Sequence record: OQ990039
DNA: 64,000 bases
Strand: one strand, 5' to 3'
DNA from: Escherichia phage SUT_E420
A model generated the notes under the pieces. The model was not told where the DNA came from. It did not search any database and saw nothing but the letters and a program-made list of their open reading frames with translations. Numbering within the stretch: the first letter of the stretch is position 1; every line of letters begins with the position of its first letter. Shown in pieces: positions 14,647 to 30,842 of this stretch. Position numbers and translations under genes: made by a program.

Positions 14647-14675
14647 TTGCTTTCAGCCAAAAATTTATATATAAT
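14647..14675 (+). promoter_or_regulatory. T5-type early promoter driving the Sir2-containing operon
   Basis: -35 TTGCTT (14647-14652), 17-nt spacer, -10 TATAAT (14670-14675), then AGATTTATAAATTTGAGAGG. Confidence 0.55.
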
Positions 14676-18226: not shown

Positions 18227-20641
18227 GTGTTCTCAATCCTACAAGGTCATGCAGGATTTCATCGCGATTTAGCCACAGGCAATTGGCGAGAAGTTAAAGC
18301 AGAAGACTATCTTTTTGCTAAAAGATTTTCCTCAAAGCATCCTGAAGGTAAACCAGCTTCAATGCCCTTCAAGTTTGATGTAATTGATGAAGTTGATCCT
18401 CAAACCCTAGTAGAAATGCTTCCTCTTATGAGACGTTTAACGTCTGACCCTCATATCGTTGCGGTACGAGGTCGATGTCTTACACCTAAAAATAATGTGC
18501 GACGTAAGAAGGGCAACTTTAATGTATCTAACCCAAGTCATATAATTGCAATGGACGTGGATGGTATTGTAGATACAGGTGGTTGCAACAAGTTTGATCT
18601 TGTTGGCATGGCTCGACATATTATTAGAATGTTAAATAGTATTAGTGAGGATATGTTTCCTCTTGATGCAGGGTTTATCGCTCATGCATCGTCTTCGGCT
18701 GGGCTNNNNNNNNNNNNNNNNNNNNNNNNNNNNNNNNNNNNNNNNNNNNNNNNNNNNNNNNNNNNNNNNNNNNNNNNNNNNNNNNNNNNNNNNNNNNNNN
18801 NNNNNATGTTAAATAGTATTAGTGAGGATATGTTTCCTCTTGATGCAGGGTTTATCGCTCATGCATCGTCTTCGGCTGGGCTAAAACCAGGTATCCGAAT
18901 GCACTTAATACTAGAATCTAATGTTAAAGTAACTCAGGGTCAAATCAAATTCTTATTTACATCTATCAACGAAAGTAGTAGACAAAAGTATGGCTTTGAT
19001 ATTGCCGACTTAGCTTATTACTCTTCCGTACAGCTCCACTATTTTGCAGATCCGTTATTTACCGATGGTATAGTAGATCCGTTTAAAGCGGAGGGTGCTT
19101 CACGTCTGGTATTTGTTAAGGGTTCTAAAGTAAATTTACCCAATAATCTGGTTGACTATGAAACAACTAGAGGTGAGTTTAAGGAGGAGTTTTACTCTTT
19201 ACTCGATCAAATTAAAGGTAAAAAAGCTGCCTCTGATAAAGTAGAGGAAACTATCAGCGAACTAGAAGAAGCTGAGGATGGAGTGTATCTACGTATCATA
19301 CCTAAACTCTATCACAGAGCCTTAGAGGATGGTGTTGATTTTGCATGGCTAGAAAAAGAAATCCGTCCAGCCTTATCAGAATATATTGCAACTAAAGATA
19401 ACAGTCGCAATATTCAAGATTACTTTAATAACGGTCGTAAACAGGCTCTGAAAGCATTTGTTAATAATTCTAAACGTGATATACCTGATGTTTTAAAGGG
19501 TATTCCACTTAAAAAGCTAGAAACTAATTCTCTAGAAACTGATAACTTCTTGAAATTAAATACTGTACCACCAGAAGGTTATATGACTTTTGTAAAAGCA
19601 AGTCTAGGTACAGGTAAAACTACAGCGGTTGTGCGTTGGTTAGATTCAGGAGTTATTAAAGGTAATTTCTTAGCAATTACCAATACTAGAGCACTGGTAT
19701 CTTCAAATGCCAAGAAATTTAGTGCAGGACAATATGATAAGTCTGTAGATATGCTTAATTTTAAGCGGGGTGCTATTGACCGTATGTCCACAACTATTCA
19801 CTCTTTGCATAAATTCAAGAGTTTTATTGGTCAAATTGATGCAATCTTTATCGATGAATGTGATGCAGTAATGAATGACCTATTATTCGCCCCGGTTGTT
19901 AAACAACGTCGCGAGTGTATTCAGGTTCTTCGGGATATTCTTGCAACTGCAAAAATCATTATATTATCTGATGGGGATATTAGTGCAGAAACAATTGAAG
20001 CATATGGTTCTTTGATTGAGTTTGATAAACCAGTAGCATTTTATAACCATCACCGTAAAATGCTATCAAAAGCTCATGCTTATGAGTTCCCGGATGAATC
20101 CAGTATTTGGGTTGCACTTCAGACTTCTCTAGAGATGGGTGAGAAATCTATCCTAGTATCTGACTGTGGGCCGGATGAACTGAATGAGAAGGGTATGGCA
20201 TTGCGTCGTAATACGGGTGCGTTAGTTAAGGAAATCCACTCAAANNNNNNNNNNNNNNNNNNNNNNNNNNNNNNNNNNNNNNNNNNNNNNNNNNNNNNNN
20301 NNNNNNNNNNNNNNNNNNNNNNNNNNNNNNNNNNNNNNNNNNNNGATATTAAGAAGTGTTCAAATGTCACTATCAAACCATTCATAGAAGCTCTGAAAGG
20401 TAAGAAGAAAGATTTCTTCCTTAAAACAGGTCAGAGTGCTAACCCAAAATATGCCAGAATGTATCTTGGTATGATGGGTATTGGTAAGGATATGAACACT
20501 GAAAATATTGTAGACTGGTACAGAACCTATTGTAAAATCGAGTGTATGCCAATCCCCTATAAGTTTATGACTGATGAGGAGAAACATATGCATGATGAAG
20601 CAATGGCAGAGCTAGGTGCTAGAAATGACAGTGAAGAATAA
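18227..20641 (+). CDS. Putative replication initiator / P-loop helicase-like ATPase, possible N-terminal primase-polymerase-like domain (interrupted by two assembly gaps)
   Basis: Start proposed at GTG 18227 with AGGAG SD. Walker A SLGTGKTT and Walker B IFIDECD. N-terminal IIAMDVDG and GIRMHLIL resemble AEP motifs (tentative). Contains gaps 18706-18805 and 20245-20344. Confidence 0.55.
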   Translation: MFSILQGHAGFHRDLATGNWREVKAEDYLFAKRFSSKHPEGKPASMPFKFDVIDEVDPQTLVEMLPLMRRLTSDPHIVAVRGRCLTPKNNVRRKKGNFNVSNPSHIIAMDVDGIVDTGGCNKFDLVGMARHIIRMLNSISEDMFPLDAGFIAHASSSAGXXXXXXXXXXXXXXXXXXXXXXXXXXXXXXXXXXMLNSISEDMFPLDAGFIAHASSSAGLKPGIRMHLILESNVKVTQGQIKFLFTSINESSRQKYGFDIADLAYYSSVQLHYFADPLFTDGIVDPFKAEGASRLVFVKGSKVNLPNNLVDYETTRGEFKEEFYSLLDQIKGKKAASDKVEETISELEEAEDGVYLRIIPKLYHRALEDGVDFAWLEKEIRPALSEYIATKDNSRNIQDYFNNGRKQALKAFVNNSKRDIPDVLKGIPLKKLETNSLETDNFLKLNTVPPEGYMTFVKASLGTGKTTAVVRWLDSGVIKGNFLAITNTRALVSSNAKKFSAGQYDKSVDMLNFKRGAIDRMSTTIHSLHKFKSFIGQIDAIFIDECDAVMNDLLFAPVVKQRRECIQVLRDILATAKIIILSDGDISAETIEAYGSLIEFDKPVAFYNHHRKMLSKAHAYEFPDESSIWVALQTSLEMGEKSILVSDCGPDELNEKGMALRRNTGALVKEIHSXXXXXXXXXXXXXXXXXXXXXXXXXXXXXXXXXXDIKKCSNVTIKPFIEALKGKKKDFFLKTGQSANPKYARMYLGMMGIGKDMNTENIVDWYRTYCKIECMPIPYKFMTDEEKHMHDEAMAELGARNDSEE
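18706..18805. other. Assembly gap (100 N) flanked by identical 77-bp copies
   Basis: The 77 bp before the N-run (18629-18705) are repeated exactly after it (18806-18882). Confidence 0.95.
20245..20344. other. Assembly gap (100 N) without flanking duplication
   Basis: No repeat of the flanking sequence across the gap; true gap content and length unknown. Confidence 0.95.
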
Positions 20642-26162: not shown

Positions 26163-26195
26163 AAGGGGAGGGGGCTATGCTCCTTCCCCTTTTTG
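26163..26195 (+). terminator. Strong intrinsic terminator after the D5-like gene
   Basis: 12-bp stem (with two G-U pairs), CTATG loop, TTTTT tract. Confidence 0.5.
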
Positions 26196-26230
26196 CATTT
26201 AGAAGGCACGAAAGCGTGCAAAGGAGAATG

Positions 26231-27700
26231 ACCTTGTTTAACGTGCAAGCTGTAGTGTTGAAGATGCTTCTAGCTTCCGAACAGAAGCAAATAGCATTGG
26301 AAACATTCTCAAAACTGCATAAAGATCATTTTAATGACGCTTTCTCCTCAATTTACCAAGCCGTCCAGAATTATTATAAAAAATATAACACAATGCCGTC
26401 CATTGACGCACTTATGCTTGAAGCTAATAGGAACGCCCGCCTTTCTCAAGCCCTAGTCGTCTTAGCTAACACTCAAATTCCAGAAGTGAGCATGGAACAG
26501 GCACTTGAAGTCCTAGAGGCCGAGTATACACAGGATTTATTCCTGAAGCTTCTAGAAACAGACGTGCTTCAAGATTTAACAATGCTGGATCAGGGAGAAA
26601 TTCTCAACCGAGTTGCCTCCCTTCACTTAAAATTAGAAGAGAAAGTAACGAATACTGGAAAAGTATTCAACGCAGATAACATGCGTATTTTCCAGAGAGA
26701 AGAAGATACCAAACTGAACTTAATCGCTCTTGGTATTTGTAATGAGTTCGATGCTCAAATTGGTTTAGCTCGCACAGAAACGTTACTGCTTGGTGGTTGG
26801 CGTGGTACTGGTAAATCCATTATCTGTTCAAACATACAGGTTCAGCAATATTTGAATGGAGATATTGCTCCATACTTCTCAATTGAGATGAAAGAACATG
26901 AAGTATTTAGACGTAATCTAGCCATGTTAGCCGGGGTATCAGCACTAGCAATGCGTAATAATACTCTAGAAGGTGCAGCTCTATTGAGATTAGCCAGAAC
27001 TAGAGCTAGAATGTTCAACGGGGGTGAAGAGCTTTTCGATAACTTCGTTAAACAGTATACAATGGCTAAGATGAGTGATTTCTACGATATGGAGAGTAAG
27101 CTAATAGAGGGGTATGAACTACATACTCCTATGATTATCGTTTATGACCCTGAACTGTCCATTACAACAGTTGACGTAGAATTAAATAAATTAGTTGCTA
27201 GATATGGTGATAAAGTTACAGTAGCTTTACTGGACTATATTAACCAAACCCGACTTCCAGATTCTAAAACCATTGATATGTATGACTGGAAGGAACAGAT
27301 GGTTGTTAGCTCGTCTTTCAAATCCATCTGCCAGAAACATAACGTGGCTGGCGTAGCTCCCTACCAGATCGATCAAGATGGTAGAACACGTATGTCAAAG
27401 GGGATTCTTGATTCCGCAGACATGGCTGCTAATCTTAATGCTGCTAAAGCTGATAATGGTCAAGGTGCTATTATGTTTGACTTTGTTAAGACTCGTTCTT
27501 CTGATAGCGTGAAGTTTATGCCTAAAATGAATTGGGAAACTCTGCGAATGGATAATACTACCAACCTAGCAATGGAAGATATATCTCAAATGGAAGCTGA
27601 GTTCGTTATCCCTATTGAGAAGGATAAGCCGGCTCAACCTAAACGTGCTAAGAAAGACAAAACTGAAAATTCAACAGGTGAACAGGCCAGCGATATATGA
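26231..27700 (+). CDS. Replicative helicase-like ATPase (RecA-fold, DnaB-like)
   Basis: Walker A GGWRGTGKS, Walker B-like IIVYDPE. Start uncertain: the track ATG at 26177 lies in the terminator loop, so 26231 (or TTG 26237) is preferred. Confidence 0.6.
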   Translation, partial: TLFNVQAVVLKMLLASEQKQIALETFSKLHKDHFNDAFSSIYQAVQNYYKKYNTMPSIDALMLEANRNARLSQALVVLANTQIPEVSMEQALEVLEAEYTQDLFLKLLETDVLQDLTMLDQGEILNRVASLHLKLEEKVTNTGKVFNADNMRIFQREEDTKLNLIALGICNEFDAQIGLARTETLLLGGWRGTGKSIICSNIQVQQYLNGDIAPYFSIEMKEHEVFRRNLAMLAGVSALAMRNNTLEGAALLRLARTRARMFNGGEELFDNFVKQYTMAKMSDFYDMESKLIEGYELHTPMIIVYDPELSITTVDVELNKLVARYGDKVTVALLDYINQTRLPDSKTIDMYDWKEQMVVSSSFKSICQKHNVAGVAPYQIDQDGRTRMSKGILDSADMAANLNAAKADNGQGAIMFDFVKTRSSDSVKFMPKMNWETLRMDNTTNLAMEDISQMEAEFVIPIEKDKPAQPKRAKKDKTENSTGEQASDI

Positions 27701-28587
27701 GTAGAATAACAGAACTACTTGATCTGAAAGGCATTGAATATAAAGACACAGGTGGGGACATCCTCATCTGTTGTCTCAATCCAGATCATGACGATAAACA
27801 CCCAAGTTTGCGTATTGATCCTGAAACAGGTATTATGCACTGCTTGAGTTGTGGCTTCGGTAAAGGTATACCGAGCATTTACCATTATTTTAATGAGACT
27901 CAGTACCGACAGTCTCCAAGACTATCGCAGGTACGTAAAAAGATTTCAGAGATTAGGAATGGATCTACAAATCTTGCAATTCCTGAATCTGCTTACCTTT
28001 TCGAAGGTGATTTCCGAGGTATAAGTTCTAAGACCTTGAAGAAATACTTTGCTTTCCAACACCAAGCAGACTGGGAAGGCAGAATTGTATTCCCAATCAC
28101 AGATGCTGTTGGACGCAATATCCTATTTTTGGGTCGTTCTATAAACAGTTCTGCCCCTCCTAAATACTTAGTAAAACCAAAACAAGTTTCACCACCGATT
28201 TTCCCTGTACGATATAATACTCCAGTTCTTATTCTAGTTGAAGGTATCTTTGATATGCTGAACCTAGAGGATAATGGTATAGACTATGCTTCTTGCTGCT
28301 TTGGTACACATCAGTTTACTTCAGATAACATTGCAGATAAGTTTAGCCCTTATATTATTGCTGGTGTAAAAGTTGTTGTTATCTTACTAGATAATGATGC
28401 TTCTGGTAATAAAGCTGCACAAGCGTTGGCCAAGCTAATTCGTACAAAAACGCGTTTAACACCTGTAGTGGCTAACTTTCTTCTACCCGAAGGTAAAGAC
28501 CCTGGTGACTTAAATAAAGAAGAAATTGATATGTTAGCAAAACGTATTGAAATTTTAGTTGCTGAATCGCTTAAAGATTTGGTATAA
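27697..28587 (+). CDS. DNA primase (DnaG-like, zinc-binding + TOPRIM)
   Basis: 296 aa; zinc motif CCLNPDHDDKHPS...CLSCGFG and TOPRIM acidic motif ILVEGIFDMLNLEDNG. Confidence 0.8.
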   Translation: MSRITELLDLKGIEYKDTGGDILICCLNPDHDDKHPSLRIDPETGIMHCLSCGFGKGIPSIYHYFNETQYRQSPRLSQVRKKISEIRNGSTNLAIPESAYLFEGDFRGISSKTLKKYFAFQHQADWEGRIVFPITDAVGRNILFLGRSINSSAPPKYLVKPKQVSPPIFPVRYNTPVLILVEGIFDMLNLEDNGIDYASCCFGTHQFTSDNIADKFSPYIIAGVKVVVILLDNDASGNKAAQALAKLIRTKTRLTPVVANFLLPEGKDPGDLNKEEIDMLAKRIEILVAESLKDLV

Positions 28588-28591
28588 TATA

Positions 28592-28636
28592 TTGGTAAGT
28601 TAGAGAAGAAACACTGAAGTTATACTTACTTACCAA
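28592..28636 (+). promoter_or_regulatory. 5'-UTR stem-loop adjacent to the DNA polymerase RBS (candidate translational operator)
   Basis: Perfect 9-bp inverted repeat TTGGTAAGT (28592-28600) / ACTTACCAA (28628-28636) with 27-nt loop, ending 1 nt before the SD GAGGAG. Confidence 0.4.
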
Positions 28637-28649
28637 GAGGAGATTAAAT

Positions 28650-30842
28650 TTGAAAATCGCAGTAGTTGATAAAGCTCTAAATAACACTCGTTACGATAAA
28701 CATTTCCAGCTATACGGCGAGGAAGTTGATGTATTTCATATGTGTAACGAGAAGTTATCTGGTCGTTTGCTTAAAAAGCACATTACTATTGGAACACCAG
28801 AAAATCCATTTGATCCGAATGATTACGATTTTGTTATACTAGTAGGTGCTGAACCTTTCCTGTATTTCGCAGGTAAGAAAGGCATTGGTGACTATACTGG
28901 TAAACGTGTAGAATATAATGGATATGCTAACTGGATTGCAAGTATCAGCCCAGCCCAGTTACACTTTAAGCCTGAAATGAAACCAGTTTTCGATGCAACA
29001 GTAGAGAATATCCACGATATTATCAATGGTCGTGAAAAGATTGCAAAAGCTGGTGATTACCGTCCTATTACTGACCCTGATGAGGCGGAAGAATATATCA
29101 AGATGGTGTATAATATGGTTATCGGACCTGTCGCATTCGACTCCGAAACCTCAGCACTATACTGTCGAGATGGTTATCTGCTTGGTGTTTCTATATCTCA
29201 CCAAGAGTATCAGGGTGTATATATCGATTCTGATTGTCTCACAGAGGTTGCAGTATATTATCTCCAGAAAATTCTGGATAGTGAAAACCACACTATTGTT
29301 TTTCACAACTTGAAGTTTGATATGCACTTTTATAAGTACCATCTGGGACTTACTTTTGATAAAGCACATAAAGAACGCAGGCTCCATGATACAATGTTGC
29401 AGCATTATGTTCTAGATGAGCGTCGTGGTACTCATGGCTTGAAATCTCTAGCAATGAAGTATACCGATATGGGTGACTATGACTTTGAACTAGATAAGTT
29501 CAAAGATGATTACTGCAAAGCACATAAAATCAAGAAAGAAGATTTCACCTATGATTTAATTCCGTTTGATATTATGTGGCCTTACGCTGCAAAAGATACC
29601 GATGCCACCATACGCTTGCACAACTTCTTCTTACCAAAAATTGAGAAGAATGAAAAACTTTGCAGTCTGTATTATGATGTTCTAATGCCTGGTTGTGTAT
29701 TTCTCCAGCGTGTTGAGGATCGTGGTGTACCNNNNNNNNNNNNNNNNNNNNNNNNNNNNNNNNNNNNNNNNNNNNNNNNNNNNNNNNNNNNNNNNNNNNN
29801 NNNNNNNNNNNNNNNNNNNNNNNNNNNNNNNGGGTATCGTGTAATCGCATGGGACTTAACAACTGCGGAAGTTTATTATGCTGCTGTTCTATCTGGGGAT
29901 AGAAATATGCAACAGGTATTTATCAATATGAGAAATGAACCTGATAAATACCCGGACTTCCACTCTAACATCGCACACATGGTATTTAAACTCCAATGCG
30001 AGCCTCGTGATGTTAAAAAGTTATTCCCAGCTCTGCGTCAGGCTGCTAAGGCAATTACCTTCGGTATTTTGTATGGTTCTGGCCCAGCTAAAGTAGCTCA
30101 TTCTGTTAACGAAGCTCTTCTGGAACAGGCTGCTAAGACAGGAGAACCGTTTGTTGAATGTACTGTTGCGGATGCGAAGGACTATATCGAAACTTACTTC
30201 GGTCAGTTCCCACAGCTTAAGCGTTGGATTGATAAGTGCCACGATCAGATTAAGAATCATGGATTTATCTATAGTCACTTTGGTCGTAAGCGTCGTCTGC
30301 ACAATATCCACTCCGAAGACCGTGGTGTTCAGGGTGAAGAAATTCGTTCTGGATTTAACGCAATCATTCAGTCTGCTTCCTCTGATAGCCTCCTTTTAGG
30401 TGCTGTAGATGCAGATAATGAGATCATTTCTCTTGGCCTAGAACAAGAGATGAAGATTGTTATGCTGGTTCATGACTCCGTGGTTGCTATTGTTCGTGAG
30501 GATTTGATCGACCAATACAATGAAATCCTGATTCGTAATATTCAGAAAGACCGTGGTATCAGTATTCCTGGCTGTCCGATTGGTATTGATTCAGATTCTG
30601 AAGCTGGAGGTTCTCGTGACTATTCTTGTGGTAAGATGAAGAAACAGCACCCATCAATCGCTTGTATTGATGATGATGAATATACTCGTTATGTCAAGAG
30701 TGTATTACTTGATGCAGAGTTCGAGTATAAGAAACTAGCTGCAATGGATAAAGAGCATCCAGATCATAGCAAATACAAGGATGATAAGTTTATTGCTGTA
30801 TGTAAAGATTTGGATAACGTAAGAAGGATTCTCGGTGCTTGA
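28650..30842 (+). CDS. DNA polymerase, family A with 3'-5' exonuclease domain (interrupted by an assembly gap)
   Basis: TTG start after AGAGGAG SD. Exo motif FDSETSALY, Pol motif B RQAAKAITFGILYGSG, motif C LVHDSV. Gap 29732-29831 has no flanking duplication. Confidence 0.9.
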   Translation: MKIAVVDKALNNTRYDKHFQLYGEEVDVFHMCNEKLSGRLLKKHITIGTPENPFDPNDYDFVILVGAEPFLYFAGKKGIGDYTGKRVEYNGYANWIASISPAQLHFKPEMKPVFDATVENIHDIINGREKIAKAGDYRPITDPDEAEEYIKMVYNMVIGPVAFDSETSALYCRDGYLLGVSISHQEYQGVYIDSDCLTEVAVYYLQKILDSENHTIVFHNLKFDMHFYKYHLGLTFDKAHKERRLHDTMLQHYVLDERRGTHGLKSLAMKYTDMGDYDFELDKFKDDYCKAHKIKKEDFTYDLIPFDIMWPYAAKDTDATIRLHNFFLPKIEKNEKLCSLYYDVLMPGCVFLQRVEDRGVXXXXXXXXXXXXXXXXXXXXXXXXXXXXXXXXXXGYRVIAWDLTTAEVYYAAVLSGDRNMQQVFINMRNEPDKYPDFHSNIAHMVFKLQCEPRDVKKLFPALRQAAKAITFGILYGSGPAKVAHSVNEALLEQAAKTGEPFVECTVADAKDYIETYFGQFPQLKRWIDKCHDQIKNHGFIYSHFGRKRRLHNIHSEDRGVQGEEIRSGFNAIIQSASSDSLLLGAVDADNEIISLGLEQEMKIVMLVHDSVVAIVREDLIDQYNEILIRNIQKDRGISIPGCPIGIDSDSEAGGSRDYSCGKMKKQHPSIACIDDDEYTRYVKSVLLDAEFEYKKLAAMDKEHPDHSKYKDDKFIAVCKDLDNVRRILGA
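29732..29831. other. Assembly gap (100 N) without flanking duplication, inside the polymerase gene
   Basis: No repeated flank; likely conceals real polymerase sequence. Confidence 0.95.

Follow-up and report, generated by a model that had tools for sequence, protein, structure and literature searches.

A conserved hairpin in the early leader of the T5-like DNA polymerase gene, adjoining its ribosome-binding site

Bacteriophage T5 is a classic model phage whose early-to-late gene control is poorly understood and whose promoters and polymerase are widely used tools. Here we analyzed a hairpin in the leader of the DNA polymerase gene of a T5-like phage, Escherichia phage SUT_E420, in a stretch of 64,000 nucleotides (nt) from record OQ990039 (hereafter the window, from whose first letter positions are counted). 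Among the closest described systems, the gp43 operator of T4 and RB69 is a hairpin of 16-18 nt with a UAAC-type loop and a sequence overlapping the ribosome-binding site (RBS), to which the family B polymerase binds (Uzan and Miller, PMC3014915). In bacterial mRNA, a base-paired 5' end makes cleavage by RNase E much slower, and a review (PMC3997798) describes stem-loops at the 5' terminus as reported mRNA stabilizers, citing the 5' untranslated regions of ompA and papA as examples (Emory, Bouvet and Belasco 1992). In T5-infected cells, early transcripts from the polymerase promoter, Ppol, were detected by primer extension by Klimuk et al. (2020), and the ATATT discriminator, which is common to all known T5 early promoters, was proposed as the target of gpT5.026 effects (PMC7472727).

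For the hairpin in SUT_E420, we propose, with a probability of roughly 0.4, a structured cis-acting 5' leader of the early Ppol mRNA that would protect the 5' end and provide a defined RBS context, and that is possibly read by a factor; within this proposal, we infer where transcription starts, how the hairpin affects stability or translation, and that a factor might bind. The promoter and the hairpin consist of the following parts.

28559..28593, + strand: early promoter Ppol (sequence, promoter scan, AKFV33 annotation and literature).
28559-28564, + strand: -35 element TTGCTG, followed by an 18-nt spacer.
28580-28588, + strand: extended -10 element TGg-TATAAT (sequence).
28585-28587, + strand: primase stop codon TAA, inside the Ppol -10 box.
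28589-28593, + strand: discriminator ATATT (sequence).
28592..28600, + strand: 5' arm of the basal helix P1, TTGGTAAGT (sequence, minimum free energy (MFE) structure, and covariation with the 3' arm).
28594..28595, + strand: predicted transcription start G, the 6th or 7th nt after the -10 box (sigma-70 spacing and ATATT discriminator).
28603..28605, + strand: GAG, 5' side of the inner helix P1b, pairing with CTT at 28625-28627 (MFE).
28610..28621, + strand: apical mini-hairpin P2, with AAC at 28610-12, the loop ACUGAA at 28613-18 and GUU at 28619-21 (MFE).
28624-28633, + strand: tandem ACTTACTTAC, which offers a second pairing register.
28625..28627, + strand: CTT, 3' side of P1b (MFE).
28628..28636, + strand: 3' arm of P1, ACTTACCAA (sequence, MFE).
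28637..28642, + strand: Shine-Dalgarno (SD) sequence GAGGAG, predicted to be single-stranded on the Ppol transcript.

The two arms form a perfect stem of 9 base pairs (bp) around a 27-nt loop (28601-28627), giving a hairpin span of 45 nt. A preliminary description of this locus had reported a promoter with its -10 box over the primase stop, followed by a perfect 9-bp stem with a 27-nt loop that adjoins the SD of a gene with a TTG start, and each of these parts lies where it was described. The loop sequence includes ACUGAA and the tract GAGAAGAAA, and a purine-rich internal loop separates P1b from P2; in the MFE structure, a 2-nt bulge and a 4x3 internal loop break up the pairing into 9+3+3 bp. 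RNA folding, one of the checks proposed in that description, returned the stem in both the MFE and the centroid structures at -10.7 kcal/mol (ViennaRNA), but the MFE z-score was only -1.15, with 26 of 200 shuffles folding as well. In the primase gene, TTTCTTCT at 28477-28484 is complementary to AGAAGAAA, which occurs at 28518-28525 in the same gene and again at 28604-28611 in the hairpin loop.

The repeat by itself is not exceptional. Perfect inverted repeats of 9 bp or more with loops of 3-40 nt number 33 in the window, compared with about 12 +/- 3 expected in Markov-1 random sequence, and the complementarity of the leader start with the rest of the leader gave a shuffle P of ~0.055. These values, together with the z-score, are what would be expected of a functionless inverted repeat that arose by chance and appears conserved as a result of short divergence times; however, the hairpin is far less diverse than neighboring synonymous sites in the same genomes, and pairing is kept across genera despite different sequences, which makes a chance origin highly improbable. 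What gives the stem-loop its significance is only its conservation and covariation in relatives.

Selection within T5-like phages was assessed in 28 distinct T5/Epseptimavirus sequences, covering 600 nt on each side of the start codon. Nucleotide diversity was 0.0048 in the 45-nt hairpin, with three variable sites that each differed in 1 of the 28 sequences, compared with 0.13 and 0.17 at the third codon positions of the primase and polymerase genes, respectively, so that the hairpin was ~30-fold less variable than third codon positions. Diversity was 0.006-0.009 at the second codon positions of the flanking genes and 0.054 in the spacer between the SD and the start codon. Two of the three hairpin variants touch P1: one changes a U-A pair to U-G, and the other breaks the outermost pair (L008). 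In the database, the 61-nt leader was at least 95% identical in 435 of 527 records, whereas the surrounding 501 nt were merely 90-95% identical in 285 records.

Within the window, the motif occurs only at the polymerase gene: no second copy of the stem was present in the 64 kb, further covariance-model matches in the window were weak (E of at least 0.27) and promoter-only, and no complementary target for the loop was found on either strand of the window with up to three mismatches. In Lindwurm-type relatives, a 330-nt open reading frame (ORF) of 109 amino acids (aa), for which Pfam gave no match, is inserted directly after the primase -10 box, and this insert brings a second promoter, TTGCTA-N17-TATAAT, immediately upstream of an identical leader. 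The inserted region lies as follows.

1589-2037 of L002 (phage Lindwurm): inserted ORF region, also present in PK7, PMBT29, SESL, BB1 and phiLLS.

Promoter and leader thus form one unit that moves together with the polymerase gene, and genes in this group seem to be swapped as promoter-bounded cassettes.

To address the conservation of the structure over longer distances, we compared the primase-polymerase junctions of Sugarlandvirus (Klebsiella), Eos, Pantoea AAS21, Enterobacter KKP_3711, Providencia PR1, Proteus PM135/Stubb, Pectobacterium My1 and DU_PP_V, and Vibrio phages. A covariance model built from the T5 structure recovered all leaders and left the Proteus stem out of register; the helices were therefore tabulated by hand, and an in-register subset was used. 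A helix with a 27-29-nt loop occupied the same place in all sampled lineages except the Pectobacterium and Vibrio groups, with the following P1 arms.

T5: TTGGTAAGT and ACTTACCAA, 9 bp.
Sugarlandvirus: ATTGGGTAAGT and GCTTACCTAAT, 11 bp including two G-U pairs.
Eos: TCTGTAAGT and GCTTACAGA, 9 bp including one G-U pair.
KKP_3711: TTTATGTAAG and CTTACATAGA, 10 bp including one G-U pair.
AAS21 and PR1: a GTAAGT core of 6 bp, then mismatches and further pairs.
Proteus phages: GTTGGAT and ATCCAAC, 7 bp, a wholly different sequence.

Proteus phages have their stem 5 nt beyond the -10 box, with its end 13 nt short of the ATG. Pairing is seen in 92.8% of the cells of the in-register alignment A5, compared with 31-54% when the partners are slid; the pair 28593-28635 appears as U-A, A-U, C-G and G-U without a single break, and the pair 28594-28634 as G-C or U-A. 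In the 13-sequence alignment, the closing pair of P2 is C-G in seven and U-A in four sequences and is never broken, and the apical loop varies as ACUGAA, ACUGAC, AACGAC, AUUGAC and AUUUGAA. P1b is paired in 7-9 of 9 sequences and shows no covariation. Between distant genera, the conservation of the element (0.71-0.87) equals or exceeds that of the flanking coding DNA (0.60-0.75) in most comparisons. The G-U wobbles favor the sense-strand RNA as the selected molecule, because they would be A-C mismatches on the opposite strand. The conservation in relatives by which the preliminary description proposed to judge the stem is thus borne out, both in the reduced diversity and in the compensatory changes, including the exchange of the whole stem in Proteus. 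To judge from these alignments, the helix is maintained by selection and compensatory change in at least six genera.

The promoter Ppol is real and active early in infection: in addition to the primer-extension evidence, AKFV33 annotates a promoter at the homologous place. From the spacing, Ppol transcription most likely begins at G28594 or G28595, inside the 5' arm of the stem; the Ppol transcript would therefore be unable to form the full 9-bp stem and would form only 6-7 bp, and the full helix is possible only on RNA that reads through from primase. On the Ppol-initiated RNA, the helix GGUAAGU/ACUUACC is predicted to be flush with the 5' end and to form with a probability of >0.9. The probability of being unpaired on this transcript is 0.65-0.96 for the SD (28637-28642), 0.79-0.84 for the TTG and 0.65-0.99 over 28637-28655, a segment that is open in the MFE structures; the SD and the TTG start are, by these predictions, not sequestered by the hairpin. 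Nucleotides 28635-36 are predicted to be free on the Ppol RNA and to be paired on the read-through RNA, which leaves the SD without a spacer. Folds of long read-through RNA predict that coding sequence further upstream pairs with the SD, but primase translation would probably prevent this pairing.

Under the 5'-leader proposal, the polymerase mRNA initiated at Ppol would carry the 6-7-bp P1 flush with its 5' end, and the helicase-primase read-through RNA would carry the 9-bp helix. The paired 5' end would hinder 5'-end-dependent decay by RppH and RNase E, and on both RNA species the fold would present the neighboring SD and the weak TTG start in an open and defined setting. A protein or the ribosome may also read the element; that something reads it is suggested by the strong sequence constraint on the loops.

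Several observations weigh against this proposal. The loop, with a diversity of 0.0026, is the most conserved part of the hairpin, whereas a generic stabilizer should tolerate loop changes. The truncated helix is weak, at about -4.9 kcal/mol including the inner helices, and the start nucleotide is a prediction from spacing rather than a mapped read-out. The two pairs that covary best (28593-28635 and 28594-28634) are located at the predicted start or before it, so that the RNA under selection seems to begin further upstream; this agrees better with a role on the read-through RNA than with a purely 5'-terminal stabilizer. RNAalifold returned no consensus structure on the MAFFT alignment of 13 leaders, in which the Proteus stem is shifted by one column and the Pectobacterium leaders have no structural homology to the others. 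The compensatory events that we regard as independent number roughly eight, in about six lineages, and some of the changes may be single inherited events. Finally, My1 and DU_PP_V have no P1 at the 5' end and carry a different hairpin that ends next to the SD.

The covarying basal pairs raise the possibility that the full helix functions on the helicase-primase-polymerase read-through RNA, as a junction element that tells polycistronic from Ppol-initiated RNA. Such RNA should exist: no terminator was called on the + strand between 26191 and 34135 by the terminator scan, which makes read-through plausible. The lack of a spacer before the SD on this RNA, with 28635-36 paired, would be a structural difference between the two RNA species, and possible versions of the function include a missing standby site that dampens polymerase translation, a processing or stability boundary, or a remnant terminator bypassed by the internal start. 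The last of these recalls the junctions of the Vibrio pVp-1-like phages and of L038, which carry the same promoter in the primase end and, 3-4 nt after the -10 box, a 13-bp hairpin with a T-run that the scanner called a terminator and that lies 46 nt upstream of the ATG, at the following positions.

1393-1464 of L039 (pVp-1): terminator-like junction hairpin.
1378-1452 of L038: terminator-like junction hairpin.

The pVp-1 5' arm, GGTAATTCGGAGA, resembles the T5 sequence GGTAAGTTAGAGA, and a hairpin at the transcription start of the junction promoter thus predates the T5-type leader, with a form and probably a function that differ. Vibrio-type transcripts started at the junction promoter would miss the basal pairs by the U-tract and may bypass the terminator, a terminator-bypass version of the start-inside-stem arrangement. 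However, the T5 stem has no U-tract and was not called as a terminator, ribosomes that finish primase translation at the stop codon 5 nt upstream would open the 5' arm repeatedly, the natural variant L008 breaks the outermost pair, and the differential translation is something that we infer entirely. We consider a read-through function unlikely, though by no means negligible.

Other relatives arrange this junction differently. In environmental relatives, the adjacency of primase and polymerase is kept, and a short leader carries a small inverted repeat around the -10 box instead; a conserved AATACGCTATAA(T/G)AAAGTATT lies ~40-15 nt before the polymerase start in L121, L125, L131, L144 and many of L114-L188, where it forms an inverted repeat of 5 bp on the two sides of the -10 box, ahead of a very short leader. 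In the Vibrio phages D120 and PVo5, an HNH homing-endonuclease gene is located at the primase-polymerase junction (L199 30-554; L200 70-573).

The position of the 5' arm within the initial transcribed region also allows an explanation at the level of DNA, in which this region affects promoter strength or is read by phage factors that turn off early genes, and the repeat is incidental. A canonical early cassette, TTGCTx-N17-TATAAT-ATATTCATAAATTTGAGAGAGGAG, recurs at many genes in the promoter scan of the window, at the following positions.

+ strand: canonical early promoter/leader cassettes at 14647, 20867, 23109, 24556, 32665 and 32765.
Minus strand: canonical early promoter/leader cassettes at 2051, 3923 and 5752.

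The cassette at 20867 matches the PN25-type sequence of expression vectors. The 5' arm and first loop bases of the polymerase leader, ATATTGGTAAGTTAGAGAAG, are a variant of the canonical early leader ATATTCATAAATTTGAGAGAGG found at many promoters of the window, the discriminator proposed as the gpT5.026 target is shared, and the inverted repeat alone is within chance expectation. The polymerase leader is, however, ~30 nt longer than the canonical ones, and the extra segment supplies the 3' arm that pairs back to the transcript start; no comparable 5' hairpin was found at the other promoters by the scan of the window. A promoter-proximal DNA element would leave unexplained why the 3' arm and the distal loop, 30-45 nt beyond the start, are conserved, as well as the compensatory changes, the Proteus stem swap and the G-U wobbles, and we give it a small chance.

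A post-transcriptional role for the hairpin is likely. The preliminary description had suggested post-transcriptional control of polymerase, and this stands to the extent that a polymerase-specific RNA structure is maintained beside the RBS; what the folding speaks against is control by the stem itself, which leaves the SD and TTG predicted open. Any repression would need a trans factor, because the hairpin itself does not hide the RBS. This would be consistent with an autogenous translational operator, in which the T5 DNA polymerase or another replication protein, when in excess, binds the hairpin and RBS and blocks initiation, in the manner of gp43 in T4 and RB69. Such an operator would account for the restriction of the element to the polymerase gene, for the mere 0-4 nt between hairpin and SD in each of the nine Markadamsvirinae-like lineages that were examined (My1 and DU_PP_V included), for selection on the loop and internal loop as strong as at non-synonymous sites, and for covariation of the apical helix while the loop consensus A-N-Y-G-A-M is kept. 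On the other side, our literature search found no report of RNA binding or autoregulation by T5 polymerase, the loop conservation could partly reflect promoter function of the initial transcribed region, and the T5 polymerase is unrelated to gp43. The resemblance to T4-type operators drawn in the preliminary description did not hold for the architecture, since size, loop and position relative to the SD all differ, as does the polymerase family; this lowers the claim of a gp43-type operator rather than that of a similar mode of action, and the T4 analogy stands as a hypothesis. On balance, autogenous repression seems rather improbable. It is similarly doubtful that the hairpin is either a true operator, with the family A polymerase or another early replication protein binding P2, ACUGAA and the purine-rich internal loop, or a two-state leader, in which the start inside the 5' arm would be the device and the Ppol RNA (truncated helix, free standby nt) would differ from the read-through RNA in translation or decay.

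Other classes of element were considered and rejected for the T5 hairpin. An intrinsic terminator is ruled out, as no site was called at 28592-28650, the loop measures 27 nt, and GAGGAG rather than a U-tract comes after the stem. An RBS-sequestering hairpin, an RNA thermometer or a riboswitch platform does not agree with an SD and TTG that are predicted to be unpaired. An RNase III site of the T7 early-mRNA type would require a near-continuous duplex of ~20 bp, and only the interrupted 9+3+3 bp are present; the Sugarlandvirus hairpin reaches 11+3+5 bp. A leader peptide is also rejected: although the frame of a CTG at 28614 runs on into the polymerase gene, a stop codon interrupts it in Sugarlandvirus. 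Rfam gave no meaningful match at permissive E-values, the best overlap being SpR08_sRNA at 15.6 bits (gathering score 80; E=9.5), and in the records inspected only the promoter is annotated, not the hairpin.

The genes around the junction are as follows.

26177-27700, + strand: replicative helicase gene (ORF list, Pfam and annotation of relatives).
27697..28587, + strand: DnaG-type primase gene (ORF list; Pfam Toprim, CHC2 Zn-ribbon and DNAG_N; primase in annotated relatives).
28650..30842, + strand: DNA polymerase gene, family A plus 3'-5' exonuclease, with a TTG start (Pfam DNA_pol_A and DNA_pol_A_exo1, and relatives).

The region 28000-29400 is 100% identical to Escherichia phages T5_ev212 and EC148, which identifies the window as phage T5 DNA, and 445 T5-like records in all were matched by megablast. 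Records labelled as Listeria, Campylobacter and Corynebacterium phages have near-identical T5-like sequence and are probably mislabelled or contaminant. T5_ev212 and AKFV33 have the same annotated start as the TTG at 28650, which is also backed by the conserved N-terminus MKIAVVDK, with an ATG at the equivalent place in other genera. In the 1989 T5 polymerase record, M24354.1, the annotated start is an ATG 79 nt beyond the TTG of modern records. The sequence of that record starts within the hairpin loop, and the original entry therefore never included the stem. The polymerase ORF of 730 aa might suggest a 125-aa deletion, but this is ruled out: positions 29732-29831 are a masked run of 100 N that replaces 475 nt of the gene and causes the apparent shortening, and the true product is 855 aa. 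This run is one of 14 runs of exactly 100 N in the window, which start at 18706, 20245, 29732, 33978, 34636, 35373, 36005, 36875, 37871, 38443, 45263, 60991, 61494 and 62115. Upstream, a strong terminator-like hairpin at 26163-26191 (13 pairs, 8 of them G-C, followed by a T-run) overlaps the first helicase codons (26177) and is annotated as a terminator in AKFV33.

A leader RNA element that is specific to the polymerase gene and constrained like protein-coding positions offers a handle, easy and inexpensive to test, on how a component of a phage replisome is controlled after transcription. Should a factor bind to it, autogenous or operator-type control would be extended beyond T4-like phages, and if the polymerase represses itself, it would be the first family A phage polymerase under autogenous translational control, with an origin independent of T4 gp43. 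If the start inside the stem matters, the arrangement would be a compact way for one RBS to behave differently on two overlapping transcripts. If the element is only a stabilizing hairpin, it would be an ordinary feature that is merely unannotated.

Each known system shares part of the arrangement found at this locus. Like the gene 43 operator of T4 and RB69, the T5 element is a leader hairpin near the RBS on the early mRNA of a phage replicative DNA polymerase. However, it is irregular and spans 45 nt rather than 16-18 nt, its apical loop is ACUGAA with no conserved UAAC, its stem ends at 28636, 0-1 nt before the SD (28637/38), and does not overlap the RBS, the predicted transcription start removes part of it, and the T5 polymerase belongs to family A rather than to family B. 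With the terminator-promoter overlap of the Vibrio phages and L038, it shares a hairpin placed 3-5 nt after the -10 box in the primase end and a related 5' arm; in contrast to those terminators, it has no U-tract, a loop of 27 nt instead of 4-8 nt, and a 3' arm that abuts the SD instead of lying 46 nt from the ATG. With the canonical T5 early cassette (PN25-type TATAAT-AGATTCATAAATTTGAGAGAGGAG), it shares the -35 element, the extended -10 element, ATATT and related first 20 transcribed nt, and differs in the longer leader with its 3' arm, which no other promoter in the window has. The stabilizing stem-loops of ompA and papA are largely sequence-independent, whereas T5 shows strong constraint on the loop sequence, covariation of pairs that lie before the predicted start, and a weak truncated helix. 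Like those stem-loops, the T5 hairpin would, if transcription starts at G28594/5 as predicted, begin at the first transcribed nt, without an unpaired 5' tail, and be followed by an open RBS.

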